DNA from: an uncultured candidate division Zixibacteria bacterium | Lineage (GTDB): Bacteria; Zixibacteria; MSB-5A5; RBG-16-43-9 | Reading direction: 5' to 3' | NCBI GenBank assembly: GCA_963713865.1 | Contig: OY970208.1 | Location: forward strand, 1,664,001-1,728,000 | Length of the DNA: 64,000 bases | Shown: positions 8,414-47,658 of the stretch, piece after piece | Layout: each line of letters begins with the position of its first letter | How positions within the stretch are numbered: position 1 is the first letter of the stretch | Notes under the pieces: model-generated | Seen by the model: only the letters and a program-made list of their open reading frames with translations | What the model was told of the DNA's origin: nothing | The model's database searches: none | Program-made: the position numbers and the translations under genes

Positions 8414-9357
8414 ATGTCTTTGTTAGAAAGGTTTTATCAAAAAGATGAACTGGCACTCTCCAGGCTTATTTCCTACGTTGAAAATCAGGCTCCGGATTAT
8501 TACAAGGTCTTATCTTCAATATATTCCGAACTGGAAAAGCCTATCGGATGGGGATAACCGGTCCACCAGGTGCAGGGAAAAGCACAATTGTTGATAAGCT
8601 AAGCAATTATTTAGCTCAAAATGGAGATCAAGTTGGGATAATCGCAGTTGACCCCTCCAGCCCATTTACCGGTGGTGCGCTATTAGGTGACCGGATCAGG
8701 ATGCAGGATTTGACCACCAAGAAAGGGATTTTTATCAGAAGCATGGCAACCCGGGGTTCTTTAGGTGGACTTGCCTTTACCACCAAAGAAGTAGCTTTAC
8801 TTTTAGATGCTTTTGGGAAAAATTATATTTTAATTGAGACTGTAGGGGTGGGGCAAGTGGAGTTAGATATAGCTGATACCTGTGATACTACCCTGGTGGT
8901 TTTGGTCCCGGAATCAGGGGATAGTATTCAAGGAATGAAAGCCGGCTTGATGGAGATTGCAGATATCTTAGTGGTAAATAAAGCTGATCGGGAAGGGGCG
9001 AAGAGGATTGTCTCGGAGTTAGATATGATCTTAGATGTACGCAGGAAGAAGGGTGAGTGGTGCTATCCAATTGTTTCTACCGAGGCGATTAATAATAAAG
9101 GGATAGATGAATTATTAAAACGAATTTTAGAACATAGAAAATATATAACTGAAAAAGGTCTTTTAGAGAAACATCGCAAAGAGCAGATTAAATCAGAGCT
9201 GAAAAAGATAGTTGAGGTAAGGATTAAAGAATTGATCGAAAAATACCTAGGTGATACTAATATAGAAAAGATAGCGGAAAAGGTCTATTCTGGCCAGGAA
9301 GACCCTTATTCAGCCGGGGAGAGGATTTTAGAGAAGTTAAACTTGAAGCTAGAATAA
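8414..9357 (+). CDS. meaB: MeaB/ArgK G-protein chaperone of B12 mutases; one frameshift near 8527
   Basis: GITGPPGAGKST, DPSSPFTGGALLGDRIRM, ETVGVGQ, NKAD; upstream frame from ATG 8414 (MSLLERF...LSRLISYVEN) supplies the missing N-terminus. Confidence 0.92.
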
Positions 9358-9371
9358 AAGGCAGGAGTCTT

Positions 9372-11039
9372 ATGTTTAATAAAGACGAACTTAAAAAAAT
9401 AGAAGAAGAGAAAAGAATTTGGGAAGAGCTATATAAAAGCTGTAAGGCTTCCAATAAGAAATTTATCACTGTTTCCGGGGAAGAAGTTAAGCCTCTTTAT
9501 ACTCCACTGGATATAAAAGAGATTGATTTCGAGAAAGACATCTCTTATCCAGGAGAATATCCTTATACCCGCGGGATCAGGACGAATATGTATCGGGGAA
9601 GAATGTGGACGATGCGCCAGTTCTCCGGAATGGGGACACCGAAACAGACTAACCAGAGGTATCATTTCCTGTTAGAGAAAGGGCAAACCGGGCTTTCAGT
9701 CGCTTTTGACCTGCCCACGCTAATGGGCTATGATTCAGACCACTCTCGCTCCTTAGGAGAAGTTGGAGTTTGCGGAGTAGCAGTAGATTCTTTAAGAGAT
9801 ATGGAGATAATCTTCGATGGGATCAGCCTGGATAAGATCTCGACTTCTATGACCATCAATGCTCCAGCTTCTGTTCTTTTTGCTATGTATATAGCGGTTG
9901 GGGAAAAGCAAGGGATACCTTCTGAAAAATTAACCGGGACCATTCAGAATGATATCTTGAAGGAATATATTGCCCAGAAGGAATGGGTTTTCCCGCCAAA
10001 ACCGCATATGCGTTTGATTACAGATACTTTAGCTTTTGCCTCTCAATATGTTCCCAAATGGAATACGATATCTATTTCCGGCTATCACATAAGGGAAGCA
10101 GGTTCTACTGCCGTGCAGGAACTAGCATTTACCCTGGCAGATGGGTTTGCCTATGTGGAGGCAGGGATTAAGACAGGCTTGGATGTGGACCAGTTTGCTC
10201 CGCGTCTTTCTTTTTTCTTTAATTCGCACCTGGATTTCTTTGAGGAAATTTCCAAATACCGTGCCGCTCGAAGGATCTGGGCAAGACATATGAAAGAAAG
10301 ATATAAAGCTAAAAAAGAAGAATCCTGGCTCTTGAGGTTCCATACTCAAACCGCAGGATGCAGTCTAACTGCTCAACAGCCGGAGAATAATATTACTCGT
10401 ACAGCTTTTGAAGCTTTAGCTGCGGTTTTAGGAGGAACTCAGAGTCTGCATACTAACTCGATGGATGAAACCTTTGCTCTACCATCAGAAAAGGCGGTTC
10501 AGATTGCTCTGAGAACTCAGCAGGTAATTGCTTATGAAACTGGTGTGGTTAATACCATTGATCCTTTAGCTGGCTCCTATTATGTTGAAGCTTTGACCAA
10601 TAAGATGGAGGAGGAAGCAGAGAAATATTTTGCTGAGATAGAGAGGAGAGGTGGTGTTTTAAAATGTATAGAGGAAGGATATTTTCAGAGAGAGATAGCT
10701 GAAGCAGCTTACCGTTATCAGAAAGAGATTGAAAGTAAGGACCGGATCGTGGTTGGGATTAACGATTTTGTAATTCCGGATGAACAGGTTGAAATCCCGA
10801 TTTTAAAATTAGATCCGGAGATTGAAAAGGAGCAGGTTCAGGCGGTTAAAAAGATTAGAACAGAAAGGGATAATGATAAGGTTAAAATGAACCTGGAGAA
10901 TTTGAAAAAAGTAATTCAAGGAACGGATAATACCATGCCCGCCATCTTAGAATGCGTGAGATGCTATACGACCGAAGGTGAGATTGTGGATGTGATGAGG
11001 GAGGTTTTTGGAGAGTATATAGAACCACCGTTGATATAA
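9372..11039 (+). CDS. icmA: B12-dependent acyl-CoA mutase large subunit, isobutyryl-CoA mutase type
   Basis: Mutase barrel without B12 domain; specificity residues Phe (WTMRQFSG) and Gln (KEYIAQKEW). Confidence 0.8.
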   Translation: MFNKDELKKIEEEKRIWEELYKSCKASNKKFITVSGEEVKPLYTPLDIKEIDFEKDISYPGEYPYTRGIRTNMYRGRMWTMRQFSGMGTPKQTNQRYHFLLEKGQTGLSVAFDLPTLMGYDSDHSRSLGEVGVCGVAVDSLRDMEIIFDGISLDKISTSMTINAPASVLFAMYIAVGEKQGIPSEKLTGTIQNDILKEYIAQKEWVFPPKPHMRLITDTLAFASQYVPKWNTISISGYHIREAGSTAVQELAFTLADGFAYVEAGIKTGLDVDQFAPRLSFFFNSHLDFFEEISKYRAARRIWARHMKERYKAKKEESWLLRFHTQTAGCSLTAQQPENNITRTAFEALAAVLGGTQSLHTNSMDETFALPSEKAVQIALRTQQVIAYETGVVNTIDPLAGSYYVEALTNKMEEEAEKYFAEIERRGGVLKCIEEGYFQREIAEAAYRYQKEIESKDRIVVGINDFVIPDEQVEIPILKLDPEIEKEQVQAVKKIRTERDNDKVKMNLENLKKVIQGTDNTMPAILECVRCYTTEGEIVDVMREVFGEYIEPPLI

Positions 11040-11135
11040 AAAAGATGACGAATGACTAATGAAGAATGAAAACTCGTAAGCGGAGTACCTTGCTCCGCCA
11101 TAGATGAATTGGAGGATTAAAGAGAAAGGTAATTT

Positions 11136-11555
11136 ATGCGAAGAAAATATCGAATCCTTTTAGCCAAACCCGGTCTGGATGGGCATGACCGGGGAATCAA
11201 GGTTGTAGCGGCTGCCCTCAGAGATGCGGGATTTGAAGTTATCTATACCGGTTTAAGACAGACTCCGGAAATGATTGTGGGAGCAGCAATCCAGGAAGAT
11301 GTAGATGCCATCGGGATGAGCATTTTATCCGGTGCGCATCTGACCCTTTTTCCTGCAGTTCTGGATTTATTGAAGAAAAGAAGAGGTGAGCATATCCTTC
11401 TTTTCGGGGGAGGGATTATCCCGGATGAGGATATTACAAGGCTAGAGAAATCAGGTGTAGGAAAGCTTTTTACCCCAGGGGCTACAACCGTAGAGATTAT
11501 TGAATATCTCAAGTCAATATTAAGCTCAGGAAGGAAAGAAGAGGCGATTTTCTAA
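11136..11555 (+). CDS. Cobalamin-binding small subunit of acyl-CoA mutase
   Basis: [17 protein letters not shown] and GGGIIP motifs. Confidence 0.95.
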
Positions 11556-18177: not shown

Positions 18178-18918
18178 ATGGCATTAAAATTTAAGTGCGG
18201 GAAGTGTGAAGAGGATATCATTACTAAATTTGTTAAAATCGGTGAGATCGCTCAATGTCGCAATTGTGGTGCTGAAACTATGGTACCGGAGAATGCTATA
18301 GAAGTAGATGAGGAACCAAAATACAAAACACCCACAGTCACTAGGCAGGATGCAGTTACAAAAGTAAAGGATAAAGTCAGACCGATTTGGGATGTGCTTT
18401 TACTGTCTATCATAACGCTCTCAATATATTTCTGGGTCTATCTCTTTAAAACGCTTCGAGAAATGAAAAATACCTTCACATTCGAGGCTCAAGAAATAAA
18501 CCCAGATAAAGTTAGACCTATTTTGATTACCTACCTGATAGTAACAATAATATGGGTTATTAGTGTTATAGCAATTAGCGTTTCCTTGGGGTTTTTAGTT
18601 TACATCTTTAAAACCTACGAATTTTATGTTTTGGAGATGATTGGTACTGTCATTTCTACAGCGCTTTTTGTTGCATTTTTTCTATCTTTTGTAAAGTTGA
18701 TCGAAGTGTGTCAAAAGAAAGGAGGAATGGTTCCTTTAAACAAATCCATTTTCTGGACAGTAATTGCGATATCTGCAGTAATCTCTTTTGTCTATATTGG
18801 CATTCCATCTTTATCACATCCCGTCCCGCTCGTCCTCGTGGATATGGTTGTAAGCCTGGTCTTAATTTACCTAATAGTAAAACAAGTTAATAGAATCTGG
18901 GAAGAATCACACTTGTAG
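18178..18918 (+). CDS. Zinc-ribbon membrane protein (DUF4234-like)
   Basis: AAAGGAGG RBS; CGKC...CRNC at the N-terminus; LLSIITLSIYFWVY and about 5 hydrophobic segments. Confidence 0.7.
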   Translation: MALKFKCGKCEEDIITKFVKIGEIAQCRNCGAETMVPENAIEVDEEPKYKTPTVTRQDAVTKVKDKVRPIWDVLLLSIITLSIYFWVYLFKTLREMKNTFTFEAQEINPDKVRPILITYLIVTIIWVISVIAISVSLGFLVYIFKTYEFYVLEMIGTVISTALFVAFFLSFVKLIEVCQKKGGMVPLNKSIFWTVIAISAVISFVYIGIPSLSHPVPLVLVDMVVSLVLIYLIVKQVNRIWEESHL

Positions 18919-19111: not shown

Positions 19112-20710
19112 TTGACGAATGATAAACCAAAATTCTTCACCAGCTCTAATATTCCCATAAACGAGCTTTACACTCCGGAAGACCTTTCTGATTTCGATTA
19201 CACCAGTAACTTAAGCTATCCAGGGCAATATCCTTTCACCCGTGGGGTGCAGAAAGATATGTATCGAGGTCGATTGTGGACGATGAGGCAGTATGCTGGC
19301 TTTGGGACTGCTCCGGAGACTAATAAAAGGTTTAAATATCTTTTAGAACAAGGGCAGACTGGACTATCTGTGGCTTTTGACCTGCCTACCCAGATAGGTT
19401 ATGATTCTGACCATTCTTTATCTTCAGGTGAGGTAGGAAAGACCGGGGTAGCAATCGATACGCTTAAGGATATGGAAATACTTTTTGATGGAATTCCATT
19501 GGATAAAGTCAGCACCTCAATGACCATCAATGCTACAGCTTCAATCCTTTTAGCGATGTACGTGGCTTTAGCTAAAAAGCAAAATGTCCCCCTAAATCTA
19601 CTCTCCGGCACGATTCAAAATGATATTTTAAAAGAATATATTGCCAGAGGAACATACATCTTTCCCCCTTGCCCTTCGATGAGACTAACTACTGACATTT
19701 TTAAATACTCCAGTGAAAATCTTCCAAAATTTAATCCAATAAGTGTTAGCGGTTATCATATTAGAGAGGCTGGGGCAACTGCAGTTCAGGAGGTTGCTTT
19801 TACATTGGCTAACGGCATAACCTATGTGCAGGAGGCGATAAATTCCGGGCTGGAAGTGAATGATTTCGCTAAACGGGTTTCATTTTTCCTGAATTCTCAC
19901 AGTAATTTCTTTGAGGAGATAGCCAAGTTCAGAGCCACCAGGAGACTCTGGGCGAAAATCATAAAAGAGAGATTCGGGGCAGAAGAAGATGCATGTAAAT
20001 TAAGATTTCATACTCAGACTGCAGGAGGTACCCTTACTGCCCAGCAGCCTGAAAATAATATAATCAGAGTTGCCCTGCAGGCACTTTCCTCAATCCTGGG
20101 AGGGACTCAGTCTTTACATACTAATTCTATGGATGAGGCCTTAAGCCTTCCCTCAGAAAAAGCGGCCGAGATAGCTTTGAGAACACAGCAGATTATTGCC
20201 TATGAGAGCGGGGTTACTGATACGGTTGACCCCTTAGCTGGAGCTTATTTTATTGAAGCTTTGACCAATAGATTAGAGGATGAGGTGAGAAAATATATAG
20301 ATTATATTGTAAAGAATGGTGGTGCATTATGGGCGGTCGAATCTGGATATTATCAGAAGGAAATTCAGAAAAGCGCTTATGAATATCAAAAGATGATAGA
20401 ATCAAAAGAGAAAATTATTGTAGGGGTGAACAAATTTGAGACTGAAGTTGAAAAAGAAAAAAGAAAAAAGATTTTTAAGGTAAGTAAAAAGGGAACATTG
20501 GATCAGATTAAAAGATTAAAAGAAGTAAAAGAAAAAAGAGATAAAGAAAAGGTGAAATTTTCGCTGGATGAATTGAGAAACAAAATCAATACGGATGAGA
20601 ATCTTATGTATCCGATTATCCAGTGCGTAGAAGCTTATGTCTCAATTGGCGAGATATGTGAGGTATTAAAAAGCGTTTGGGGAGAGTATGAACAAAAAGT
20701 GATAATCTAA
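19112..20710 (+). CDS. Methylmalonyl-CoA mutase large (substrate-binding) subunit
   Basis: [10 protein letters not shown] (Tyr) and KEYIARGTY (Arg) carboxylate-binding residues; no B12 domain; TTG start with GAGGT RBS. Confidence 0.9.
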
Positions 20711-20833: not shown

Positions 20834-20847
20834 AAAGGTCAAAAATT

Positions 20848-21246
20848 ATGAAAATAGAAAAAATCGAACATGTCGGGATTGCAGTAAAAAGTATAGATGA
20901 TGCTGCTAAGTTCTATGAGGGTATCCTGAATCTCAAGTTAACAGATAAAATCGAGGTTCCTCAGAGAAAAATCAGAATTGCTTTTGTGCAGGTATCTGAA
21001 ACTAAATTAGAGCTTTTAGAGTCTATGGAGGAAGGGAGTGTTATTGATAAATTCATTCAGAAAAAGGGAGAAGGGATTCATCATATTTGCTTTGAGGTGG
21101 AGGGATTTGATGAAGTTGTAGATGAGCTAAAGTCGAAAAAGGTTGAATTGGTAGACGAACCCCGAATAGGTGCAGAAGGGAAGAAAATCGTTTTCCTTCA
21201 GCCTAAAAATGCTTTCGGGGTTTTGATTGAGTTGAAGGAGAAGTAG
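20848..21246 (+). CDS. mce: Methylmalonyl-CoA epimerase
   Basis: VOC fold HVGIAV, ELLE, GEGIHHICFEV, GVLIEL; the track N-terminal extension is repeat DNA. Confidence 0.93.
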   Translation: MKIEKIEHVGIAVKSIDDAAKFYEGILNLKLTDKIEVPQRKIRIAFVQVSETKLELLESMEEGSVIDKFIQKKGEGIHHICFEVEGFDEVVDELKSKKVELVDEPRIGAEGKKIVFLQPKNAFGVLIELKEK

Positions 21247-21358
21247 TATAGCTGATTAGATGGATTAAGCAGATGGACTAAATAGCAGATTGTAGAACAT
21301 TCGCCCGACACAAAGGTCGGGCACTGCGAATAAAGAAAGATAAAAAGAGAGGAACAAT

Positions 21359-22432
21359 ATGGGTCTTTTTGAGATGATGGAGGAGAAAGGGCACGAGCAG
21401 CTGATATTCTGCTATAATCAGCCCACTCAGCTAAAAGCCATAATCGCCATTCACGATACTACCCTGGGAAAAGCTGTGGGTGGTTGCAGGCTCTGGAAAT
21501 ATAATACAGAGACAGAGGCGATTACGGATGCTTTGATTTTGTCTGAAATTATGACTTATCAATCTGCTATCTCGGATTGCGATACCGGCGGGGGCAAAGT
21601 AGTTTTGTGGCATGATTTTGAAGAAGAGGCAGATGAGGCTTATTATCGTGCTTTAGGAAGGTATATCGAGGGGCTAAAAGGAAGGATCGTGACCTATCCA
21701 GATTTAGGCACTGATACTCAGGAGATGAAATATATAAGAAGAGAAACCGAGCATGTCCTTTTTTATGAAACCTCCTCAGGCTTAAGAGCAGAAAGCTCAG
21801 AGCTTACCGCTTACGGTGTTTACTGGGGGATGAAAGCCTGCGTTAAAGAGCTTTATGGTATATCCTCTTTAGATGGGCTTACTGTGGCAATTCAAGGAGT
21901 AGGGAGTGTAGGTCGAATACTGGCTGATTATCTCAAGGAAGAAAAAGTAAAGCTTATCGTTACTGATTTGAACTACGATTCTATCAAAAAAGTTCAGGAT
22001 AAATTTCCGGATACAGTGATTACACACCCGGATAAAATCTTAAACTGCGAGTGCGATGTTTTTTCACCCTGTGCCTTGGGTCCGGTATTCACCAAACGTA
22101 ATATAGATACACTTCGTTGTAAAATCATTGCTGGAGGAGCTTATAATATTTTAGAAGAGGTTTCATTGGCTGAGGAACTATTTAAACGAGGGATTCTGTA
22201 TGCTCCGGACTTTGTGATAAACAGTGGTGAGCTTTTTATGACTGCGGATGCTTTAAAGATATTATCCAAAGATGAAGCTTTAGCCTCAGCTAAAAAGATC
22301 TATGATATAATGGCAAAAGTACTGGCTATATCCAGAAGAGGGAATATCTCCCCTTATAAAGCTGCTTACCAGTTGGCAAAAGAAAGGATAAAAAAAGTAG
22401 GGGATATAAAGAATATTTTATGTTGTATTTAA
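21359..22432 (+). CDS. Leu/Phe/Val dehydrogenase-family protein with altered carboxylate site
   Basis: AIHDTTLG, GGCR, MTYQ, GGGK, QGVGSVG, FSPCALG, YAPDFVIN. Confidence 0.85.
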   Translation: MGLFEMMEEKGHEQLIFCYNQPTQLKAIIAIHDTTLGKAVGGCRLWKYNTETEAITDALILSEIMTYQSAISDCDTGGGKVVLWHDFEEEADEAYYRALGRYIEGLKGRIVTYPDLGTDTQEMKYIRRETEHVLFYETSSGLRAESSELTAYGVYWGMKACVKELYGISSLDGLTVAIQGVGSVGRILADYLKEEKVKLIVTDLNYDSIKKVQDKFPDTVITHPDKILNCECDVFSPCALGPVFTKRNIDTLRCKIIAGGAYNILEEVSLAEELFKRGILYAPDFVINSGELFMTADALKILSKDEALASAKKIYDIMAKVLAISRRGNISPYKAAYQLAKERIKKVGDIKNILCCI

Positions 22433-22545: not shown

Positions 22546-23638
22546 ATGAATAAGAAAAATAGTTTCAGGATTTTGGTGATTAACCCGGGATCGACCTCTA
22601 CCAAGGTCTCAATTTTTGAAGATGAAAAGGAGCTTTTTGGAAAAGCAATCTCCCATAGCAAATTAGAACTGGAACCATTTAAAAGGGTTCTGGGATCAAT
22701 ATGAGTTCAGAAAGAAGCTGATTAAAGACTTATTGGAAGTGTATGAGATTAAGCCAGAAACTCTTTCGGCAGTAGTAGGTAGAGGTGGACTTTTCAGGCC
22801 AGTGGTTGGTGGAACTTATCTGGTAAATGAACTGATGATCGAGGATGGTAGAAATGCTTTTGGAGGAGAGCATGCGGCTAATTTAGGTGCAGTTTTAGCT
22901 TTTGGGCTTGGCTGGGATTATCATATACCCGCTTTCATTGTGGATCCACCCTCTGTGGATGAATTCGAAGAATACTCCCGCTATTCAGGTTTGCCGGAGT
23001 TTCCCAGGAAAAGTCTTTTTCACGCACTAAACGTAAAAGCCACAGCCCGATTAGCCGCAAACGATTTGAAGAAAAAGTTAGAGGAGACAAATCTGATTGT
23101 GGCTCATTTGGGAGGTGGGATTACCGCAGCGGCTTTGAGAAAGGGAAGAGCAATTGATGTTAATAATGGCTTGCATAGTGGTCCGTTTACACCGGAAAGG
23201 TCTGGAACTTTACCGATGTTTGATTTTGCGGAATGGTGTTTTTCCGGGAAAGTGATTTTAGAACAGGTGAAAAAAAGGATGGTGGGTGGTGGTGGCCTGG
23301 TGGCTTATTTAGGGACAAACGATGCTAAAGAGGTGGAAAAAAGAATTAAACAAGGGGATAAAAAGGCTGAAGCTGTCTATAATGCAATGATCTATCAGAT
23401 TGCCTGTGAAATTGGTGCCAGAACTGTAGCCCTCAAGGGTAAGGTGGATGCTATCGTTTTAACCGGAGGATTGGCTTACTCGGATATGGTGGTTGAGAAG
23501 TTGAGAGAATATGTAGGTTTTGTTGCTAAGATATTAGTCTATCCAGGACAGGATGAGATGAAGGCTTTGGCTTTAGGTGCTCTCAGGGTGTTAAGAGGGG
23601 AGGAGGAGGCAAAGACCTATCCGGAGGTGGTCAAATAA
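22546..23638 (+). CDS. buk: Butyrate (branched-chain acyl) kinase; one frameshift at ~22692
   Basis: INPGSTSTK in the frame from ATG 22546; VGRGG, HAANLG, HALN, HLGGG, GPFTPERSG and LTGG in the second frame. Confidence 0.9.
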
Positions 23639-23762: not shown

Positions 23763-23876
23763 CGTAACGTCCGACAATCCTGTCGGACGTTATTATTTTT
23801 GTAGCGGATCCGCCTTTGGCGGACAGGTTTCCATCTTCCTTTAACAAGAGAATGGAAGGCTGAAGCCTTCCGCTAC
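23763..23876. repeat. Cluster of REP-like hairpins between convergent gene blocks
   Basis: CGTCCGACA..TGTCGGACG; GTAGCGGA with nested TCCGCCTTTGGCGGA; GGAAGGCTGAAGCCTTCCGCTAC. Confidence 0.7.
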
Positions 23877-28208: not shown

Positions 28209-29132
28209 TTATTTCACGTAAGTAAGCCAGCCGTATTTATCTTCAGCCTCACATGACACTATCTGGAAAAACCTCTCCTGTAATTTTGCAGTTATAGGAC
28301 CTCGTTTTCCTGAACCAATGATTACCTTGTCGATTGAGCTTATCGGGGTAATCTCTGCGGCACTGCCTGTAAAGAAAACCTCATCTGCGATATAAAGCGC
28401 TTCACGGGGGATGTTTTCCTCGATCACCTTTATTTTTAACTCCTGGGCTAAATAAAGCACCGTATTACGAATAATTCCAGGTAGAATTGAGGAACCAAAG
28501 GATGGGGTGATTAAAGCGCCATCCCTGACTATGAATATATTCTCACCGCTTCCCTCGCTTACATATCCATAAACATCCAGGGCAATTCCTTCGACATATC
28601 CATGTTCTTTGGCTTCTAATTTTATCAACTGGGAGTTCATATAGTTGGCTCCGCTTTTTGCCATGGCTGGAAATGTGTTAGGTGCCATCCTGTTCCAGGA
28701 GGAGACACAAACCGGAACGCCATTCTCCAGAGCATCTTTGCCCAGATACTTTCCCCATTTCCAGACTGCAATGGAGACATCGATGGGACAGCCGGTTGGA
28801 TCAACTCCTAATTGTTCGTATCCGCGGTAAGCCACTGGTCGAATATAACATTCGTCTAATTTATTGACTTTAATAAGATCAATTATTGCCTGATTTATCT
28901 CCTCTTTAGTAAAGGGGATTTTCATCCGGTAGATCTTGGCAGAATTAAAAAGCCTGTCAGTATGTTCTTTCAACCGGAAAATAGCTGGACCTTTTTTGGA
29001 TTTATAACATCTGGCCCCCTCAAAAACACTGGAGCCATAATGCACCACATGGGAAAGGACGTGAATCTTGGCATCATCCCAGTTTACAATCTTTCCATTC
29101 ATCCATATTTTTTCGACTTTTTCAAACGGCAT
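28209..29132 (-). CDS. ilvE: Branched-chain amino acid aminotransferase
   Basis: [42 protein letters not shown]. Confidence 0.96.
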
Positions 29133-31673: not shown

Positions 31674-32741
31674 TTAGTACTCTTTTTCTTTCTCTTCTTC
31701 TGTCAATGCCCTTAAGGCTCCTAAGGTTAAAGCCTCCATCTCATCCTCACCTGGGAAAACCAGAACTTTGGAGAGGAAATCGACCCTCTGTTTAATCATA
31801 TTAATCAATCTTTCCGAATTGGCTATCCCTCCGGTGAGAACAATCGCATCTACTTTACCAGATAGAGTGGGTGCCATTGCCCCGATCTCTTTGGCGATCT
31901 GATAGACCATTGCCTCATAGATCAGTTTTGCTTTTTGATCTCCAGAGTCGATCATTTTTTCAATTTCTTCCACATTGTCTGTATCCAGATAAGCTAAAAG
32001 TCCACCTTTTTTGGTTATCTTATCATACATCTCCACATAGGTGTATTTTCCAGAGAAGCATAGCTTAACTAAACCCGTTACTGGAAGATTGCCAGTCCTC
32101 TGGGGTGAGAAAGGTCCACCATCATTAGCATTATTTACATCGATCATCTGCCCTTTTAAATGGGAACTAACGCTGATTCCTGAACCGAGATGCACGATGA
32201 TCAGATTAAGCTCCTCATATCTTTTTCCCAGTTCAAATGCAGATTTCCTTGCCACCATTTTGATATTCAAGGCGTGAGAGAGACTTTTTCTTTCCAACTC
32301 CGGCATACCAGAAATTCGTGAAATTGGAGGGAATTCATCTACTGAGACCGGATCAACAATGAAAGCAGGTATGTCAGTCTCTCTGATTAATCCATAAGCA
32401 ATCAGTGCTCCCAGATTTGAAACATGGTCTGCCTGGACATTGCCAGCTCTTATATCTGAGAGCATCTTCTGGTTAACTCGGTAGGTGCCACTGGATAAAG
32501 GTTTAAAAGCACCTCCTCTTCCTACCACTGCAGAAAGGTCCGTGATTTTCAGATTGTTCCTCAGCAAGAATTTCATTACTATATTCTTTCTGTAATCCAA
32601 CTGGTCTAAGGTCTTAGGATAGTCTTTAAGCTCATCTGCAGAATGCCTTAAAACCTCCACGATCAGAGGATTTTTATCCTCATACAGAGCTACCTTGGTA
32701 GAAGTTGCCCCGGGATTGATGCTTAAAATTTTATAGGTCAT
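31674..32741 (-). CDS. buk: Butyrate (branched-chain acyl) kinase
   Basis: INPGATSTK, VGRGG, HVSNLG, HALN, HLGSG, GPFSPQRTG, LTGG. Confidence 0.95.
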   Translation of the reverse strand: MTYKILSINPGATSTKVALYEDKNPLIVEVLRHSADELKDYPKTLDQLDYRKNIVMKFLLRNNLKITDLSAVVGRGGAFKPLSSGTYRVNQKMLSDIRAGNVQADHVSNLGALIAYGLIRETDIPAFIVDPVSVDEFPPISRISGMPELERKSLSHALNIKMVARKSAFELGKRYEELNLIIVHLGSGISVSSHLKGQMIDVNNANDGGPFSPQRTGNLPVTGLVKLCFSGKYTYVEMYDKITKKGGLLAYLDTDNVEEIEKMIDSGDQKAKLIYEAMVYQIAKEIGAMAPTLSGKVDAIVLTGGIANSERLINMIKQRVDFLSKVLVFPGEDEMEALTLGALRALTEEEKEKEY

Positions 32742-32897: not shown

Positions 32898-33962
32898 TTA
32901 CGCATGTCTCTGTCTGAATTTCTTAACTTCGGCGATCCTGGCTTTGGCTAAGATATTAGCAGCTTTGTAGGTTGGTATTTTCGAGTCCTCAGAAATCTCT
33001 AAGATTCTTTTCATAATATCATAAATTCCAGTTGCCTGTTTTATTGCTTTTTCTCTGATATAACCTCCTAATTCATTAGCTACATTGATCATACCGCCTG
33101 CACCGATTACAAAATCTGGTGCATATAGTATTCCTTTTTTATGCAAGATCTCCCCATATTTTTCCTCCGCCAGTTGATTATTAGCTGGACCAGCGATGAT
33201 CTTCACTTTAAATTTCTCCATAGTTTCAGCATTTATCACTCCGCCTAAGGCACAGGGTGAGAAGACATCTGCTTTAACTTCAAAGATCTTTTCTGGCGAA
33301 ACGATCTCTGCATCTAACTCCTGCCTGGCTTTCTCGGTTTTCTCAGTTATAATATCCGCAACGATTAATCTGCATCCTGCCTCTTTCAATTTCTGAGCCA
33401 GATGATACCCAACATGACCCACCCCTTGAATCGCCACCGAGATACCTTCCAGAGATTTTCTATTAAAAACTTTCTCCACACAGGCTAAAAGTCCGTTGTA
33501 TAGACCGATAGCAGTGATGGGGCCCGGATCTCCGCTTCCTCCTAAAGCCCTGGATAGACCTACTACATATTTGGTCTCATAGCGGACTATCTCCATATCC
33601 TCAACTGTGGTTCCAACATCTTCGGCAGTGATATATCTTCCGTTAAGACCTTGCACAAATCTTCCAAATGCTCTTAAGAGTAATTCGTTTTTATTTTTTA
33701 GAGGGTCTCCAATTATCACCCCTTGACCCCCACCAAAGTTAATCCCAGCAGCAGAGGCTTTATAAGTCATAGCTTTAGAAAGAAGCAATACGTCTTTTAA
33801 TGCCTCCTCCTCAGATTTGTAAGGAAACATCCTTACTCCACCAATGGCCGGTCCTAAGGTGGTATCGTGGATAGCGATGATTCCTCGGAGTTGTGCTACT
33901 TTATCCGAGCAGAAGATTATCTGCTCATGTTGGTCTTCAGCTAAAGATTCAAAAATTTCCAT
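32898..33962 (-). CDS. Leucine dehydrogenase-like protein with catalytic Lys replaced by Gln
   Basis: AIHDTTLGPAIGGVR, MTYK, GGGQ (normally GGGK), TAEDVG, QGVGHVG, ANNQL. Confidence 0.88.
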   Translation of the reverse strand: MEIFESLAEDQHEQIIFCSDKVAQLRGIIAIHDTTLGPAIGGVRMFPYKSEEEALKDVLLLSKAMTYKASAAGINFGGGQGVIIGDPLKNKNELLLRAFGRFVQGLNGRYITAEDVGTTVEDMEIVRYETKYVVGLSRALGGSGDPGPITAIGLYNGLLACVEKVFNRKSLEGISVAIQGVGHVGYHLAQKLKEAGCRLIVADIITEKTEKARQELDAEIVSPEKIFEVKADVFSPCALGGVINAETMEKFKVKIIAGPANNQLAEEKYGEILHKKGILYAPDFVIGAGGMINVANELGGYIREKAIKQATGIYDIMKRILEISEDSKIPTYKAANILAKARIAEVKKFRQRHA

Positions 33963-40769: not shown

Positions 40770-42266
40770 CTAAACACCGATCTCCCATTTGCCCAGGGAA
40801 AGCCAGGGATCATACCCTGTGGCTTTAATCATCTTCCCCTTGGTAGAAGTTTTATCTGTTGATTGAATAACTCCGGCAATTAAAGCGATCTCTTTGAATT
40901 TCTCATTCTCTCTTTTCTCTTTCCATTCACCCATATTCTTGGGAATAAAATCGGTCTGGGTATTACCGGCAGTGAATTCTGGATGGGATAATAAATCTTT
41001 AAGATAGTTTATCTGGGTTTTAATGCCCAAGATGGCATAATCGGAAAGAGCCTGAATGGATCTTTTTCTGGCAGACTCTCTATTCTCGGCCCAGCAGATA
41101 AGTTTAGCCAGAATCGGGTCATAGTGCATAGTTACTTCGATTCCGGAGTATAGTCCTGAGTCATTCCTGATTCCGGGTCCGGAAGGCTCTTTAACATATA
41201 ATATTTTACCAAAGGAGGGGAGGAAATCATTTTCCGGGTCTTCGGCGTAGATCCTGCATTCAATCGCGTGTCCTCTTTGTGAAAGCTCCTCCTGCTTGAA
41301 AGGAAGTTTTTCACCACTTGCAATTTTTATCTGGGTTTTAACTAAATCCACACCAGTTACCAACTCGGTTATGGGATGCTCCACCTGAATGCGGGCATTG
41401 ACTTCCAGGAAATAGTATTTCCCATTCTCATCCAAGAGGAACTCGACTGTGCCTGCGTTGTTATAATTAGCGGTTTGAATAACTTTCACTGCAGTTTTTC
41501 CCATCTCAGCTCGGAGCTCAGGAGTTAAAGCAGTAGAGGGAGCTTCCTCTATGATCTTCTGATGTCTTCTCTGGATGGAACACTCCCTTTCAAAAAGATG
41601 GACTGCATTTCCATAATTGTCGGCTAATACCTGAAACTCAATGTGTCTTGGTCTCTCAATACATTTCTCCAGATAAACCGATTCATCTCCAAAAGCAGAT
41701 TTTGCTTCTCTCATTCCAGCTTCTATTGAGGATTTCAAATCTTCTTTGGAGTGGATGATTCTCATCCCTTTTCCTCCACCACCAGCAGAGGCTTTGAGCA
41801 TCACCGGATAGCCGATTCTTTCTGCCTGCTCTTCAAACTCTTTCAGGTTTCCACCTTTCATCTTCATACCGGGGATTATGGGGATTTTTGCCTGGGTCAT
41901 AGTCTTACGGGATTCAATTTTATCTCCAACCAATCTTAAAGCCTCTGAATTAGGTCCGATGAAAATTATTTTCTCGTCCTCACATCTTTTAGAAAAAAGA
42001 TGATTTTCAGCTAAGAAACCGTAACCCGGATGAATTGCTTCTACTTTAGATTTTTGGGCGATATCAATGATTTTGTCAATATTCAGGTAACTTTCTAACG
42101 GGGGAGCAGGACCTAATAGATGGGCTTCATCTGTCATCTGAACGTGAAGCGCTTTTCTATCCACCTCAGAGTATACCGCTACGGTTTCTATCCCCATCTC
42201 CTTGCAAGCCCGGATAATCCGGACTGCGATCTCACCCCGATTGGCAATTAGAATATTTTTGAACAT
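40770..42266 (-). CDS. Biotin carboxylase subunit (LiuD-like)
   Basis: ANRGEIA, HPGYGFLAEN, ERECSIQRRHQK, RIQVEHP; lies beside liuBC-like genes. Confidence 0.93.
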   Translation of the reverse strand: MFKNILIANRGEIAVRIIRACKEMGIETVAVYSEVDRKALHVQMTDEAHLLGPAPPLESYLNIDKIIDIAQKSKVEAIHPGYGFLAENHLFSKRCEDEKIIFIGPNSEALRLVGDKIESRKTMTQAKIPIIPGMKMKGGNLKEFEEQAERIGYPVMLKASAGGGGKGMRIIHSKEDLKSSIEAGMREAKSAFGDESVYLEKCIERPRHIEFQVLADNYGNAVHLFERECSIQRRHQKIIEEAPSTALTPELRAEMGKTAVKVIQTANYNNAGTVEFLLDENGKYYFLEVNARIQVEHPITELVTGVDLVKTQIKIASGEKLPFKQEELSQRGHAIECRIYAEDPENDFLPSFGKILYVKEPSGPGIRNDSGLYSGIEVTMHYDPILAKLICWAENRESARKRSIQALSDYAILGIKTQINYLKDLLSHPEFTAGNTQTDFIPKNMGEWKEKRENEKFKEIALIAGVIQSTDKTSTKGKMIKATGYDPWLSLGKWEIGV

Positions 42267-42280
42267 AGTATATGTTTTTC

Positions 42281-42359
42281 GTAGCGCGACCCTTTCAGGG
42301 TCGCTAAGTGAGGCTTAAGCCTCACACTGCATTCGTCCGACACTAAGGTCGGACGTTAC
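42281..42359. repeat. REP-like hairpin cluster
   Basis: GTAGCGCGACCC-TTTCA-GGGTCGC, GTGAGGCTTAAGCCTCAC, CGTCCGAC..GTCGGACGTTAC. Confidence 0.8.
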
Positions 42360-42382
42360 GTTTTTTTAACCCTTGAACTTTT

Positions 42383-43174
42383 TTATTCTTGACTCCACTT
42401 AGGCTTTCTTTTTTCCAGAAATGCGTTCATCCCTTCCTGTCCTTCTTCGCTTATTCTCATCTTGGCAATGACTTCAGCAGTGTATCTTTTGAATTCTTCT
42501 GGCTTCATCCCAGGAACATTATGCAACAAATCTTTGCACATAGCTGAAGCTTTGGGACCTGAGGAAAGGAGCTGTTTTATCCTTTCGTTTACGGCTTCAT
42601 CTAATTTATCTTCTGGAACCACCTGGTTTGCCATACCGGATTGTAAAGCTTTTTGAGCATCTATTCTTTCGCCGGTTAAAAATAACTCCCTGGCTACTCT
42701 TTCACCAACTCTTCGCAGAACATAGGGAGAGATGCAGGCGGGGACTAAACCTAATTTTACCTCAGATAAGCTGAACTTAGCCTTTTCTGAGGCTATGACT
42801 ATGTCACATACTGCCACCAAACCAGCTCCTCCTCCGATGGCTGCACCATTGACCCGGGCAATAGTTGGCTGAGGGAGGGTATACATCAAATAGAAAAGTT
42901 CAGCTAACTGCAGAGATTCTTTCAGATTTTCTTCATAAGAAAAATTTATTACCCTTTTCATCCAGTTCAAATCCGCACCTGCACAGAAAGATTGACCATT
43001 CCCGGTGAGAACCGCGATTCTAATTTTTTCGTCTGCTGAAATTATTTTAAAAATTTCAGTAAGCTCGAAAATCATAATGTCGTTAAAGGCATTATGCACT
43101 TCCGGACGATTCAGAAAAATACGGGCAATTTGATTTTCGATTTTAAAAGTGATGGTTTGATATTCCGAAGGCAT
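42383..43174 (-). CDS. liuC: Methylglutaconyl-CoA hydratase (LiuC-like)
   Basis: LNRPEVHNAF, FCAGADLNWM, GGGAGLVAVCD, SEVKLGLVPACISPY. Confidence 0.85.
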   Translation of the reverse strand: MPSEYQTITFKIENQIARIFLNRPEVHNAFNDIMIFELTEIFKIISADEKIRIAVLTGNGQSFCAGADLNWMKRVINFSYEENLKESLQLAELFYLMYTLPQPTIARVNGAAIGGGAGLVAVCDIVIASEKAKFSLSEVKLGLVPACISPYVLRRVGERVARELFLTGERIDAQKALQSGMANQVVPEDKLDEAVNERIKQLLSSGPKASAMCKDLLHNVPGMKPEEFKRYTAEVIAKMRISEEGQEGMNAFLEKRKPKWSQE

Positions 43175-43187
43175 CTTTATTATCCTT

Positions 43188-43255
43188 TGTCATTCTGAGC
43201 CCGTAGGGCGAAGAATCTGTAGATTCTTCGGTCGCCATGCTCCCTCAGAATGACA
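43188..43255. repeat. TGTCATTCTGAG...CTCAGAATGACA palindromic element, copy 2
   Basis: First 31 nt identical to 15901-15931. Confidence 0.85.
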
Positions 43256-43267
43256 GCTCTAATTATT

Positions 43268-44875
43268 TTACATCCTGAAAATCCCATATTTAGTCTCTGG
43301 GATAGGTTCATTCAGAGCCATAGAGATTCCTAAAGCTAATGCAGTTCTGGTCTCGACTGGGTCGACTATACCATCATCCCATAACCTGGCAGTGCTGTAA
43401 TAAGGGCTGGATTCCTCTTCGTATTTTTTCAAAATCGGCTCTTTGAATTTCTCTTGCTCCTCCTCGGTCATCTTAATCCCTTTAGCTTCCAAGGTTCTCA
43501 TCCTTACGGTTAATAAAACATTTGCCGCCTGATCCCCTCCCATCACGCAGATTTTGGCATTGGGCCACATCCATAAAAGACGCGGGTTATAAGCCCTTCC
43601 GCACATCCCGTAATTTCCAGCACCATAGGAACCGCCAACAATTACCGTGAATTTTGGCACATCTGCATTGGCAACTGCATGCACCATCTTGGCTCCATCT
43701 TTGGCAATTCCGCCGTGCTCATATTGTTTGCCGACAATAAACCCGGTGATATTCTGCAAGAATATCAAAGGGATTTTTCTCATAGTGCAAAGGGTGATAA
43801 AATGTGCAGCTTTAACTGAGCTTTCGGAGAATAGAACACCATTATTAGCTAAAATTCCCACGGGATAACCCATTATCTTAGCAAAGCCTGTGACAATCGT
43901 AGGTCCATAAAGCTCCTTGAACTCCTGGAACTTACTCCCGTCCACTATGCGGGCGATAATCTCCCTCTGGTCATAAGGTTTTCTTATGTCACGAGGTATA
44001 ACCCCGTATATTTCTTTTGGGTCATAATAAGGTTCTTCAGGTTCCTTTGTATCCAGCTCAAATTTTTTGGGGTGATCTAAATTCTCGATTATATTTCTGG
44101 TAATCTCTATGGCATGTTCATCATTTAAAGCATAGTGGTCTGCTACACCTGAAATCCGGCAGTGAACATCAGCCCCGCCTAATTCCTCATCGGTGACTTC
44201 CTCTCCGGTTGCGGCTTTGACCAGAGGAGGACCTCCGATGAAAATAGTTCCCTGTTTTTTTACTATTACCGCCTCATCGCTCATCGCCGGGACATAAGCT
44301 CCTCCTGCAGTGCAGGAACCTAAGACCACTGCTATCTGGGGAATTCCCAAGGCAGAAAGTCTTGCCTGGTTATAAAAGATTTTGCCAAAATGGTTTTTGT
44401 CCGGGAAGGTTCCGGATTGATATGGTAAGAAAATCCCGCCAGAATCGACTAAGTAAACGCAGGGGAGATGGTTCTGCTCTGCTATTTCCTGAGCGCGAAC
44501 ATGTTTTTTTATGGTAGAGGGGAAATAGGTTCCGCCCTTGACTGTGGCATCATTTGCCACAATCAGAACCTCTCTTCCGTGAACCACACCCACTCCGGTT
44601 ATTATTCCTGAGCTTGGAGGTTCTTCCTCATACATTTTATAACCAGCTAAATGGGAGAACTCCAAAAAAGGAGTATTTTTATCGAAGAGAAGATTTAATC
44701 TTTCCCTGGGTAGAAGTTTTCCTCTGGCTTTATGTCTTGCCTTATCTTTGGCAGAGCCACCCTCCTTAATCTTGGCTAAAACCTCCTTATACTCATCCAC
44801 CACCCTCTGCATGGCGTCAAGATTGGCTTTGAATTCTAAGGAACTGGTATCGATTTTTGATTCTATACGGAACAT
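43268..44875 (-). CDS. liuB: 3-methylcrotonyl-CoA carboxylase carboxyltransferase subunit
   Basis: [54 protein letters not shown]-terminal GIFRM. Confidence 0.93.
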
Positions 44876-44902
44876 TTTTTACCTTTACCTTAGTTATATT
44901 TC

Positions 44903-45021
44903 GTAGTGCGACCCTTTTCCTATTAACGGATCCGAAGCAAGCCCCCGTAGGGTATGATATGGTCGTATTGCCCTACGGGCGCTACTTTTTAAATACGTCC
45001 GACAGAAACGTCAGACGTTAC
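44903..45021. repeat. REP-like cluster with nested palindromes
   Basis: GTAGTGCGACCCTTTTCC..ACGGATCCG..GCCCTACGGGCGCTAC; CGTCCGAC..GTCAGACGTTAC. Confidence 0.75.
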
Positions 45022-45056
45022 GTCTCCAAACTCCAAACGAACAAGCTTCAAACTTT

Positions 45057-45446
45057 TTACACCGGCACGCATTTATACCCGTAACAGATAATCCCGGCTT
45101 CGCCTTCCTGGAAGATTTTCCGGAACTCGATTCTCACCGGCATCCCGATCTCCAATTTGTCAAAATCGCAGTCTGCTACCTGGGATAAAATCTTAACTCC
45201 CTCATTTAGTTCCACTATTCCCATGGCATAAGGAGTCTGATCTGTGAATTGACTGGGCGCTACCCGGATTACGGTATAGGTAAGAAGCTTGCCTTCTTTT
45301 TGTAAATTAATCTTCTCGAATTCTCTGGATTTACAACCATCGCAGATTAATCTTGGCGGAAAGAATATCTTACCGCATTTTTTGCATTTCCCAGCCTCTA
45401 ATCTATATCTCTGAGGGATTTCCCTCCAGTATTTTGGCGATGACAT
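45057..45446 (-). CDS. DUF35 Zn-ribbon/OB-fold scaffold protein
   Basis: CKKC..FFPPR..CDGC plus OB fold; start overlaps the thiolase stop. Confidence 0.93.
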   Translation of the reverse strand: MSSPKYWREIPQRYRLEAGKCKKCGKIFFPPRLICDGCKSREFEKINLQKEGKLLTYTVIRVAPSQFTDQTPYAMGIVELNEGVKILSQVADCDFDKLEIGMPVRIEFRKIFQEGEAGIICYGYKCVPV

Positions 45447-46603
45447 TATACCACCTCCATTATATGAACAATGCTGCTTCCCCCGCTTCCTCCCATATTC
45501 TGGGTCAAGCCGATTTTGGCATTTTTGACCTGTCTTTCACCAGCATCACCCCTGAGCTGTTTTACTATCTCGATTGCCTGGGCAACTCCGGTTGCTCCAA
45601 CTGGATGACCTTTCGATTTTAGTCCGCCAGAAGTATTAACCGGTATCTTTCCACCGAGAGTGGTTAACCCGTGCTCGGTTTCGGGACCGCCTTTTCCTTT
45701 TTCCACAAAACCTAACGCCTCGATCACGCAGATCTCCGCAATAGTGAAACAGTCGTGAACCTCTGCTAAATCTATCTCTTCTGGTCTTTTGCCTGACATA
45801 TCATAAGCGATTTTTGCGGCTCGCTCAGTTGATTTAATCTCAGTTAAATCATTCCGGCTGTGAAGAGCAATAGTATCTGTGGCATGGCCTATACCGATTA
45901 TTTTGACAACTGGTTTTTTAGAAATCTTCTTAGCTAAATCCAGGGGTGCTAAAATTACTGCAGCGGCTCCATCGGTTATAGGAGAGCAGTCTAAAATTCT
46001 TAACGGATCTGCTACCATGACCGAGTCCAGAACCTCCTCTAAAGTTATCTTCTGAGGATATTGAGACAGGGGGTTCATTGAGCCGTGATAATGGTTTTTC
46101 ACCGCGACCTGAGCAAGCTGTTTTCTTGTGGTTCCATATTTCTGCATATGGGCACGCGCCATCAAAGCATAAAGTCCAGGAAAAGTTATTCCCTGATAGA
46201 CCTCATATTCCTGGTCTGCGGCAGTGGAGAGGGCAAAAGTAGCGCCAGCTACTGAAACGTCGGTCATCTTCTCCACACCTCCCACTAAAACTATATCGTT
46301 TAATCCTGAGGCAACCTCGATAAATCCTGTTTTCAAAGCTAATCCTCCGGATGCGCAGGCAGATTCAACCCTGGTAGCTGGAATTTGTCCCATTCCCAAA
46401 TAATCAGATAAAAGAGAGGAGAGGTGCTCCTGATCCACAAAAAGACCCGAGGACATACATCCAACATACATAGAGTCGATATGGTCAACACCCGCATCTT
46501 CAATTGCCAGTAAAGCCGCCTCAGTGAATATGTCCCTTAAAGATTTTTCCCATAACTCCCCCCATTTATTCATTCCCACACCGATTATTGCGACGTCTCT
46601 CAT
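45446..46603 (-). CDS. Archaeal-type acetoacetyl-CoA thiolase
   Basis: [45 protein letters not shown]. Confidence 0.92.
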
Positions 46604-46611
46604 TTTCTCTC

Positions 46612-47658
46612 CTATTCCCCTTTCCTGATTTTTCCGCGGTATTTAGCGTAAGTCCCGTATTCCACATAGCTTTTATTATTGTTCAGCATATCTCTGGTCT
46701 TAATCGCTTTGTCCCTGACCTGGTTTATCCTCTCAGTCACCCTCCAGACAAAAGCATCACTTCCTGCACCTGAGCCATAAGAGACCATAAAAATTAAATC
46801 ATCTGGTTTGGCTTCATCTAAAATCGCAGTTAATCCCATAGGGGAGGAACCTGAATAAGTATTTCCCAGTTTCGGACACAAAAGACCTGTTTCCATCTGT
46901 TCCTTTTCAAACCCTAAGAGCTTACCTACCTTCACAGGAAATTTTCCATTGGGCTGGTGAAAAACCGCATACTGGAAATCCTTAGGCTTCATTTTTAATT
47001 TCTCTAACATCCCTTTTCCCGCGCCTAAGATATGTTTGAAATAAGCCGGGTCACCGGTAAATCTGGAGGCATGTCTGGGATAGAATTGATACTCTCTTCT
47101 CCAGAAATCCGGGGTATCGGTCATATAGGAATAGGTATCAACTGCCTCAGCGATAATATTGTCCTTCCCCATAATGAAAGCTGCAGCTCCGGCCGCAGCG
47201 GTATATTCTAATGCATCCCCGGGTGCTCCCTGAGAAGTATCTGCTCCAACTGCCAAGCCATATTCGATTGAGCCGGATCCGACCAAACCCAGGCAGACGA
47301 ACATCGCTTCAGTCCCAGCTTTGCAGGCAAATTCAAAATCTGCGCAGTGAACGTCCGGAGTGGCTCCGATGGCTTCTCCTACCACTGTTCCGCTTGGTTT
47401 TACTGCATAAGGATGTGATTCTGAGCCTACATAAACCGCCCCAATTTTTTTAGGGTCAATCTGTGCCCGTTTCAAAGCACTAAAAGCGGCTTCGACTGAC
47501 ATAGTGATAGTGTCCTGATCTGGAGCGGGGACAGATTTTTCTTCCACACTAAGCCCCTTTTTATAGGCTTGTGCATCAGCACCCCAGACTTTGGCGATCT
47601 CTTCCACCTTTATCCTGTGTCTGGGGATATATGCCCCGTATCCTGTGATTCCAACCAT
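46612..47658 (-). CDS. Archaeal-type hydroxymethylglutaryl-CoA synthase
   Basis: 348 aa; [51 protein letters not shown]. Confidence 0.94.

Follow-up and report, generated by a model that had tools for sequence, protein, structure and literature searches.

What does a leucine dehydrogenase (LeuDH) homolog do once both residues that hold the carboxylate of the substrate have been replaced? This question was raised by a 64,000-nucleotide stretch of DNA (the window) from an uncultured candidate division Zixibacteria bacterium (GenBank assembly GCA_963713865.1, contig OY970208.1, positions 1,664,001 to 1,728,000 of the forward strand). The window contains two LeuDH paralogs, here named PAR1, which is the subject of the question, and PAR2, which lies 10.5 kb away (Table 1). 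Judged by its residues, PAR1 does not look like an ordinary leucine dehydrogenase. It is tentatively read, at somewhat less than an even chance, as an NAD-linked dehydrogenase that has been retargeted to a substrate without the canonical alpha-carboxylate.

PAR1 has the N-terminal dimerisation/catalytic domain and the C-terminal NAD(P)-binding domain of the Glu/Leu/Phe/Val (ELFV) dehydrogenase superfamily. Its open reading frame (ORF) was matched by Pfam PF02812 (E 1.2e-20, 74 bits, cut-off 25.3) and PF00208 (E 8.9e-15, 55.5 bits, cut-off 23.4). No NCBIfam model reached its cut-off for PAR1, the top model being ScyB tryptophan dehydrogenase (NF035922, 302.3 bits against a cut-off of 600), and matches in the protein atlas were to generic Leu/Phe/Val dehydrogenase clusters only. 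The protein was aligned over its full length to the solved LeuDHs 8gxd (E 2.5e-94), 3vpx (4.3e-94), 6acf (6.9e-92) and 1leh (3.5e-88). An AlphaFold2 model made from a 20-sequence alignment had a pLDDT of 89.1 and a pTM of 0.87. LeuDH 8gxd was the top Foldseek match of this model (TM 0.91), and PDB 3AOE was also among the fold matches.

Residues of PAR1 were numbered as in the G. stearothermophilus/Sporosarcina LeuDH to approximately residue 216 and are one higher beyond it. Where LeuDH has 'mtyK', 'tAEdvg' and 'iagsaNnql', PAR1 has 'mtyQ', 'tYPdlg' and 'iaggaYnil', and 'gggK' is unchanged. The substitutions are K68 to Q, A113 to Y, E114 to P and N261 to Y, the last at PAR1 residue 262. The first-pass annotation of this DNA, made from the sequence by eye, had read MTYQ for MTYK and GGAYNIL for GSANNQL, and had the catalytic Lys (GGGK), the Asp (TYPDLG for TAEDVG) and the GVGSVG motif as retained. 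Alignment to the solved enzymes confirmed the two changes, the codon map and alignment together confirmed the retained residues, and the equivalences drawn by eye were correct. That annotation had also named Lys68 and Asn261 as the carboxylate binders that are mutated in engineered amine dehydrogenases (AmDHs), and here it is supported by PMC8766677, in which K68/N261 is the pair that recognises the carboxylate and is mutated when LeuDH is converted into an AmDH.

PAR1 departs from LeuDH in its substrate-facing residues, as follows. The catalytic Lys80 and Asp115 are present, as are the NAD-binding GxGxxG motif (GVGSVG, 180-185), the acidic residue after beta-2 (D203), G41/G42, M65 and T150. 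Recognition of the alpha-carboxylate by Lys68/Asn261 is lost (Q68, Y262), and the hydrophobic pocket L40/A113/V291/V294 is replaced by V40, Y113, L292 and T295. The pocket residues of PAR1 comprise Q68, D73, D75, W84, Y113, P114, Y262, E291 and F293.

A word-indexed homolog search returned 6890 proteins with E <= 1e-20 among 8000 scored candidates. The best 120, which were 50-94% identical to PAR1 and whose sources, where named, were labelled Zixibacteria, Eisenbacteria or 'leucine dehydrogenase', were used for conservation counts together with PAR1 itself (n=121). Q68, D75, K80, D115, Y262, G180, G182, G185 and D203 were present in 121/121. E291 was present in 120/121, Y113 and F293 in 119/121 each, D73 in 112/121 and W84 in 104/121. 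Conservation of the K-to-Q and N-to-Y changes in orthologs had been proposed as a check in the first-pass annotation, and both were thus found to be invariant; D75, E291 and F293 are fixed changes beyond those it had listed. As Q68, K80, D115 and Y262 were each found in every sequence, the substitutions are neither chance nor sequencing error, and conserved replacement of K68/N261 makes canonical recognition of a 2-oxo acid unlikely. The ORF of PAR1 was intact across all genomes and loci examined, and the rebuilt pocket is shared by many uncultured bacteria of sediments.

A set of 28 pocket positions was defined as the 27 in Table 1 of PMC8766677 plus K80. Entropy was lower at these positions than at the other 329 (mean 0.74 vs 1.10 bits; one-sided Mann-Whitney p 0.012). 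A pocket that is more conserved than the remaining protein points to a ligand site in use and not to decay, and the earlier suggestion of a pocket simply blocked by the Tyr residues, as in a decaying protein, was not borne out. A position was considered to be clade-specific if its top residue was shared by 90% or more of the PAR1-clade sample and differed from the residue present in at least 60% of 115 canonical representatives. Positions 68, 83, 113, 262, 291 and 293 and an inserted P217 were selected in this way, and five of the seven (68, 113, 262, 291 and 293) are on the published list of LeuDH pocket positions. No new fixed Lys, Arg or His able to assume carboxylate binding was found in the PAR1 clade relative to the 115 canonical representatives. 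These comparisons describe PAR1 as an intact, selected, folded protein with an NAD-binding motif and a rebuilt, conserved pocket, which by its residues is unable to hold an alpha-carboxylate in the canonical manner.

To assess the distribution of such proteins, 1.84 billion representatives were searched exhaustively with HMMER; 6818 matches had E <= 0.001, and 1155 had E <= 1e-30. Residue sets were read in the best 150 representatives (50%-identity clusters). The canonical K68/K80/D115/N261 set was present in 121 of these, and 13 were without K68 (P0074, P0121-P0123, P0126-P0130, P0133, P0135, P0149 and P0172). Trees were made using FastTree (90 rows) and IQ-TREE in quick mode (65 rows); P0128 and other short rows were excluded from both. 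PAR1 and the included K68-less representatives formed one clade apart from canonical LeuDH, with a support of 99 in each tree (SH-like for FastTree, SH-aLRT for IQ-TREE). This placement assigns PAR1 to an uncharacterised clade of LeuDH-like proteins without K68.

The genome of the source organism was searched for further ELFV proteins. Three matches were obtained, namely PAR1, PAR2 and one glutamate dehydrogenase (GDH)-like protein, and there was no canonical LeuDH. PAR2 has a canonical pocket (K68, A113, E114, D115 and N261) but carries K80 to Q (codon CAA, 33723-33725) and N287 to G. Residue N287 of LeuDH lies within 6 Å of the substrate (PMC8766677, Table 1), and K80 mutants of LeuDH, including K80Q, are reported to be strongly impaired with partial rescue by ammonia (Sekimoto et al. 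1993, as cited in the review PMC12018205). Q80 and G287 were present in all 13 PAR2 orthologs examined, from 13 genomes. Among the best 120 PAR2 homologs, 90 (61-97% identity) had the linked set I40/Q80/G147/G287, two short rows missing one position, and 30 (58-61% identity) had L40/K80/S147/N287. The losses in the two paralogs are therefore complementary: PAR1 keeps the chemistry residues without the carboxylate binders, and PAR2 keeps the carboxylate binders without the catalytic lysine.

Co-occurrence of the two paralogs was scored in 121 genomes of the Zixibacteria phylum, including the source genome. Both were present in 13 genomes, one of which had PAR1 split over two contig ends and one of which had a PAR2 without residue check. 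PAR2 only was found in a single genome (93% complete), PAR1 only in none, and the others had neither; six of the genomes without PAR1 and PAR2 contained other, more distant ELFV proteins with K68/K80/N261. A second sample comprised 31 genomes of an Eisenbacteria-labelled phylum. A PAR1-like gene (48-52% identity) was present in 18 of these and was accompanied by a PAR2-like gene in 14; four genomes had the PAR1-like gene only, none the PAR2-like gene only, and 13 had neither. Where both were present, they often shared a contig at a distance of 11-13 kb. Among PAR1-like proteins of the Eisenbacteria type, Q68 was present in 17/18 and D75, Y113 and E291 in 18/18 each. The PAR2-like proteins had K68 and N261 in 12/12, with A/S80 and G115 also in 12/12, and G182, G185 and D203 were present in 30/30 PAR1-like and PAR2-like proteins taken together. 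The gene order was mutase, epimerase, PAR1-like, HMG-CoA synthase in 15/18, and buk, crotonase, PAR2-like in 10/12. In loci L208-L237 of this phylum, several of the six-frame matches spanned one in-frame stop (TGA or TAG).

Independent losses of K80 in each phylum were considered and rejected. The free tree split the PAR2 groups, yet the constrained tree was better by 26 log-likelihood units, with a p of 0.78 in the approximately unbiased (AU) test. Because the genomes are kin and the AU test did not reject a single origin of K80-less PAR2, the co-occurrence counts are not independent. They are best taken as one old, stable arrangement and not as repeated independent events, and on these comparisons PAR1 and its partner PAR2 are a conserved pair of LeuDH paralogs, both non-canonical.

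The genes surrounding PAR1 were then identified. On the + strand, upstream of PAR1, the order is MeaB, mutase large subunit, B12-binding subunit, acyl-CoA dehydrogenase and MBL-fold protein, followed by carboxyltransferase, biotin carboxylase, BCCP, an ORF without a match, a second mutase large subunit (MCM-B), an epimerase-like protein, PAR1 and the butyrate kinase gene buk1. By its gene content this row is catabolic, for branched-chain amino acids, propionyl-CoA and leucine. The epimerase ORF was listed from 20734, and orthologs of 133 aa suggest a start at about 20848. The assembled buk1 is broken by one extra base at 22688, whereas intact orthologs are of 362-367 aa. The extra base was missing in a same-genus genome and in contigs of 4/4 covering public runs (three studies), and is either an assembly error or a private frameshift of the strain. 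A class IV aminotransferase is also encoded in the window (28209..29132), and five 2-oxoacid:ferredoxin oxidoreductase alpha-type genes were found elsewhere in the genome.

Pattern scans of genome and metagenome contigs were dominated by canonical LeuDH, one of the patterns being general, and among the loci examined PAR1-type genes were recognised in about 5 from genomes and about 12 from metagenomes. Directly after PAR1, buk1 was present at 9/9 related loci from genomes and, where metagenome contigs extended beyond PAR1, at 8/8; epimerase and mutase were upstream in 6/9 and 8/8, respectively. In several related loci, a trio of HMG-CoA synthase, thiolase and DUF35 genes and methylcrotonyl-CoA-carboxylase-like genes directly followed PAR1-buk1. 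A canonical LeuDH was directly followed by buk in 37/62 named-genome loci. The order at PAR2 was acyl-CoA dehydrogenase, crotonase, PAR2 and buk2 in 10/13 loci, and acyl-CoA dehydrogenase, PAR2, ptb and BCAT in 3/13.

Table 1. Coordinates of PAR1, its diagnostic codons, PAR2 and adjoining genes in the window.
Feature	Position	Strand	Basis
PAR1, LeuDH-family (ELFV) paralog with rebuilt substrate pocket, 357 aa, ATG start	21359..22432	+	Pfam, structure-database alignment, codon map
Q68 codon CAA, replacing carboxylate-binding K68	21560..21562	+	alignment, codon map
K80 codon AAA, catalytic lysine retained	21596..21598	+	alignment, codon map
Y113-P114-D115 (canonical A113-E114-D115)	21695..21703	+	alignment, codon map
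GVGSVG Rossmann motif of PAR1	21896..21913	+	codon map
Y262 codon TAT, replacing carboxylate-binding N261	22142..22144	+	alignment, codon map
E291-L292-F293 (canonical G290-V291-I292), acidic and aromatic residue at pocket-lining positions	22229..22237	+	codon map, published pocket list
E291 codon GAG	22229..22231	+	codon map
PAR2, the other LeuDH paralog (354 aa; 44% identity with PAR1)	32898..33962	-	genome search, codon map
Butyrate kinase buk2, directly downstream of PAR2	31674..32741	-	TIGR02707 488 bits, synteny
Methylmalonyl-CoA-mutase-type large subunit (MCM-B), two genes upstream of PAR1	19112..20710	+	Pfam PF01642, TIGR00641
Methylmalonyl-CoA epimerase-like VOC protein, directly upstream of PAR1	20845..21246	+	Pfam Glyoxalase_4, synteny
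Butyrate kinase buk1, directly downstream of PAR1, frameshifted in assembly	22547..23638	+	Pfam, orthologs
Terminator-like hairpin, 13-bp stem and T tail, closing the + strand row after buk1	23764..23793	+	consensus scan only

If PAR1 is a retargeted dehydrogenase, it would perform NAD(H)-linked C-N/C=O chemistry through K80 and D115. Its substrate would most probably be an amine or a carbonyl compound, neutral or cationic, from amino-acid fermentation, for example an amine, an amino-aldehyde or a beta- or omega-amino compound derived from branched-chain amino acids. Hydrogen bonds would be donated by Q68, Y113 and Y262, and counter-charges would be supplied by D75 and E291, in a pocket predicted to be narrowed by A113Y and I292F. 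A neutral or cationic substrate is preferred over a 2-oxo acid because of the two added acidic residues, D75 and E291. The proposal that the protein is an active enzyme is based upon the invariance of K80 and D115 (121/121) and upon a pocket that is constrained more than the remaining protein. Replacement of the carboxylate-binding pair with K80/D115 kept, as found in PAR1, is also the pattern of AmDHs derived from amino-acid dehydrogenases (AADHs). A natural AmDH in the strict biocatalytic sense would be a subset of this proposal and is considered unlikely. Several observations weigh against catalysis by PAR1 or against this subset. Among the 13 K68-less representatives within the best 150, K80 was present in only five and D115 in eight. 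The Eisenbacteria-type PAR1-like proteins had A/G115 in 18/18, A80 in 9/18 and S262 in 18/18, and such loss within the same gene order suggests that the shared function of the family needs no chemistry residues; the estimate for a natural AmDH was lowered for the same reason, as D115 (absent in 18/18) and K80 (absent in 9/18) are both required in AmDHs. It was lowered further by the character of the new residues, which are polar or acidic (Q, Y, D75 and E291) and unlike S/L, and by the company of a LeuDH paralog, PAR2, from which the catalytic K80 is missing. Precedents exist for pseudoenzyme regulators derived from AADHs. The adjacency of LeuDH and buk is inherited from ptb-LeuDH-buk operons (37/62), so the gene order says little on the substrate.

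Several of these observations favour a second explanation, which is nearly level with the retargeted dehydrogenase and only slightly less probable, and which the first-pass annotation had raised as a regulatory subunit: that PAR1 is a non-catalytic accessory or regulatory pseudo-dehydrogenase that uses the LeuDH fold, its oligomer surfaces and NAD(H) binding. Such a protein would sense redox state and/or a small cationic ligand and would modulate PAR2, in a hetero-oligomer, or a neighbouring acyl-CoA/acyl-phosphate enzyme. It would be consistent with a PAR1-like/PAR2-like pair conserved in two phyla, with second-phylum copies that have both lost catalytic residues yet are intact with the Rossmann motif, with the absence of K80 from PAR2 and from 8/13 of the K68-less representatives, and with the precedents GdhA and ADLP, which are described below. 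A pseudo-dehydrogenase retains the dinucleotide-binding motif and loses a catalytic residue. The motif is retained in PAR1 (G180/G182/G185/D203 in 121/121, as a sequence motif only); the catalytic residue is kept in PAR1 and lost in PAR2 (Q80) and in the Eisenbacteria-type PAR1-like proteins. Invariance of K80/D115 down to 50% identity is unexpected if these residues are without a role, and the ADLP clade, unlike PAR1, has lost its Lys everywhere. The active sites of LeuDH each lie within one subunit. A hetero-oligomer could not, therefore, pool K80 of PAR1 with K68/N261 of PAR2, which counts against an accessory role, and the co-occurrence of the pair may stem from one ancestral event (AU p 0.78). 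A PAR1-buk1 complex is a priori improbable, since the Eisenbacteria-type PAR1-like gene is followed by HMG-CoA synthase and not by buk (15/18) and the LeuDH-buk adjacency is ancestral. It is also improbable that PAR1 is still an amino-acid (2-oxo-acid) dehydrogenase, in which the alpha-carboxylate would be held by the Q68 amide and the Y262/Y113 hydroxyls and the narrowed pocket would select a small amino acid feeding propionyl-CoA or leucine catabolism. K80, D115, G41/G42, M65 and T150 are retained, Q and Y should by their chemistry be able to donate hydrogen bonds, PAR1 is located where the catabolic row expects a deaminating enzyme, and a genome without canonical LeuDH that encodes the 2-oxoacid:ferredoxin oxidoreductases would suit this role. 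With the K68 salt bridge gone and acidic D75 and E291 added, however, an anionic substrate should be disfavoured, the K68/N261 change is reported to abolish keto-acid activity in engineered enzymes (PMC8766677), and the class IV aminotransferase is available for deamination of branched-chain amino acids. That PAR1 is a functionless, decaying duplicate with a blocked pocket is very improbable. Two bulky Tyr residues at pocket positions and the frameshift in the adjoining buk1 would fit, but the intact ORF, the invariant pocket residues in orthologs of 50-94% identity and the absence of the extra buk1 base from the same-genus genome and the public runs all count against it.

The complementary losses may also be considered for the pair as a whole. 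It is possible, though doubtful, that PAR1 and PAR2 constitute an obligate two-paralog system derived from LeuDH, spread across at least two phyla and controlling branched-chain amino acid fermentation. The pair might, as a hetero-oligomer, sense redox state or amino acids. Alternatively, in a relay, PAR2 would carry out hydride transfer only, on an amino or imino acid, and PAR1 would carry out chemistry on a carboxylate-free intermediate. In one sub-case PAR1 would be the first natural AmDH of the ELFV fold.

PAR1 was compared with known systems. With canonical LeuDH (EC 1.4.1.9; 8GXD, 3VPX, 6ACF and 1LEH) it shares the two-domain fold, the length, 43-45% identity, K80, D115, G41/G42, M65, GxGxxG and D203, and a butyrate kinase as the next gene downstream. 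It differs by the clade-fixed changes K68 to Q, N75 to D, A113 to Y, E114 to P, N261 to Y, G290 to E and I292 to F, and by its separate K68-less clade. In AmDHs engineered from LeuDH/PheDH (K68S/N261L; Abrahamson et al. 2012, cited in PMC8766677), the same two positions are changed as in PAR1. Position 114 is also changed, with E114V in improved variants against P114 in PAR1, and K80 and D115 are kept. The engineered enzymes carry S/L where PAR1 has the polar, bulky Q/Y, and PAR1 adds Y113, D75 and E291, giving a narrower and more negative pocket.

Two regulatory systems were also compared. GdhA of Thermus thermophilus has no catalytic activity and serves a hetero-hexameric GDH as a regulatory subunit (PMC9570180). 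GdhA/GdhB, like PAR1/PAR2, is a pair of ELFV superfamily paralogs, and one copy is inactive and regulatory; it differs in being a GDH and in having one complete enzyme subunit, whereas neither PAR1 nor PAR2 has the full canonical residue set. In ADLP the catalytic Lys is replaced clade-wide; the protein binds NAD+/NADH, and its gene lies beside that of its target, a short-chain-acyl CoA transferase, which it regulates (bioRxiv 10.1101/2025.10.31.685773). The likeness to PAR1 is that of an AADH-derived clade with altered catalytic residues and a retained NAD(H)-binding motif among genes of short-chain acyl metabolism. ADLP belongs to the AlaDH fold family and not to ELFV, its Lys is lost where that of PAR1 is kept (the Lys being lost in PAR2 and in Eisenbacteria-type PAR1-like proteins), and its partner is a CoA transferase, none of which is present at the PAR1 locus. 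Natural AmDHs (nat-AmDHs) belong to a fold family that differs from ELFV. Their NAD(P)H-dependent reductive amination of substrates without a carboxylate is the activity that the first-pass annotation had proposed for PAR1. A 2024 paper lists nat-AmDHs separately and the AADH-derived AmDHs as engineered only (PMC11164908).

Literature searches, with subscription journals outside their coverage, returned no description of a natural LeuDH homolog without K68/N261 or without K80, only engineered K68/N261 variants, and no paper linking leucine dehydrogenase with Zixibacteria. If PAR1 does represent a natural lineage in which the K68/N261 change was combined with long-kept chemistry residues, it would provide a ready-made scaffold based on Q/Y plus Asp/Glu rather than S/L, and would also show a natural use of such an enzyme. 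Independently of this, co-inherited LeuDH paralogs with complementary losses (K68/N261 vs K80/N287), both catalytically depleted in a sister phylum, are a clean natural case of enzymes becoming something else within a fermentation gene cluster, with parallels to dehydrogenase-derived NAD+ sensors. PAR1 and PAR2 are both annotated as 'leucine dehydrogenase' in public sources, and metabolic reconstructions built on this label for Zixibacteria and Eisenbacteria are consequently probably wrong.

Further features of the window were recorded as follows. Between the epimerase-like gene and PAR1, the spacer (21290..21330, +) can pair into a perfect hairpin of 7 bp (GCCCGAC...GTCGGGC), which has another inverted pair around it and no T tail. 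MCM-B was aligned to 4r3u and human MCM, in which 'RQYAGF' and 'ARGTYIFPP' give the Tyr/Arg pair, presumably typical of methylmalonyl-CoA mutase; its best solved match was the 2-hydroxyisobutyryl-CoA mutase 4r3u despite this pair. The window contains two mutase large-subunit paralogs (8548..11555 and MCM-B, both +) against one B12-binding small subunit and one MeaB. The 246-aa ORF at 18178..18918 (+), between BCCP and MCM-B, was without a Pfam or NCBIfam match and was conserved in no fewer than two related loci (L032 and L135; 56-62% identity). Genes for an archaeal-type HMG-CoA synthase, a thiolase and DUF35 form a trio within 40770..47658 (-). They adjoin genes for a carboxyltransferase, a crotonase resembling methylglutaconyl-CoA hydratase and a biotin carboxylase, and from its gene content this region looks like a leucine-catabolic (or reverse) module.

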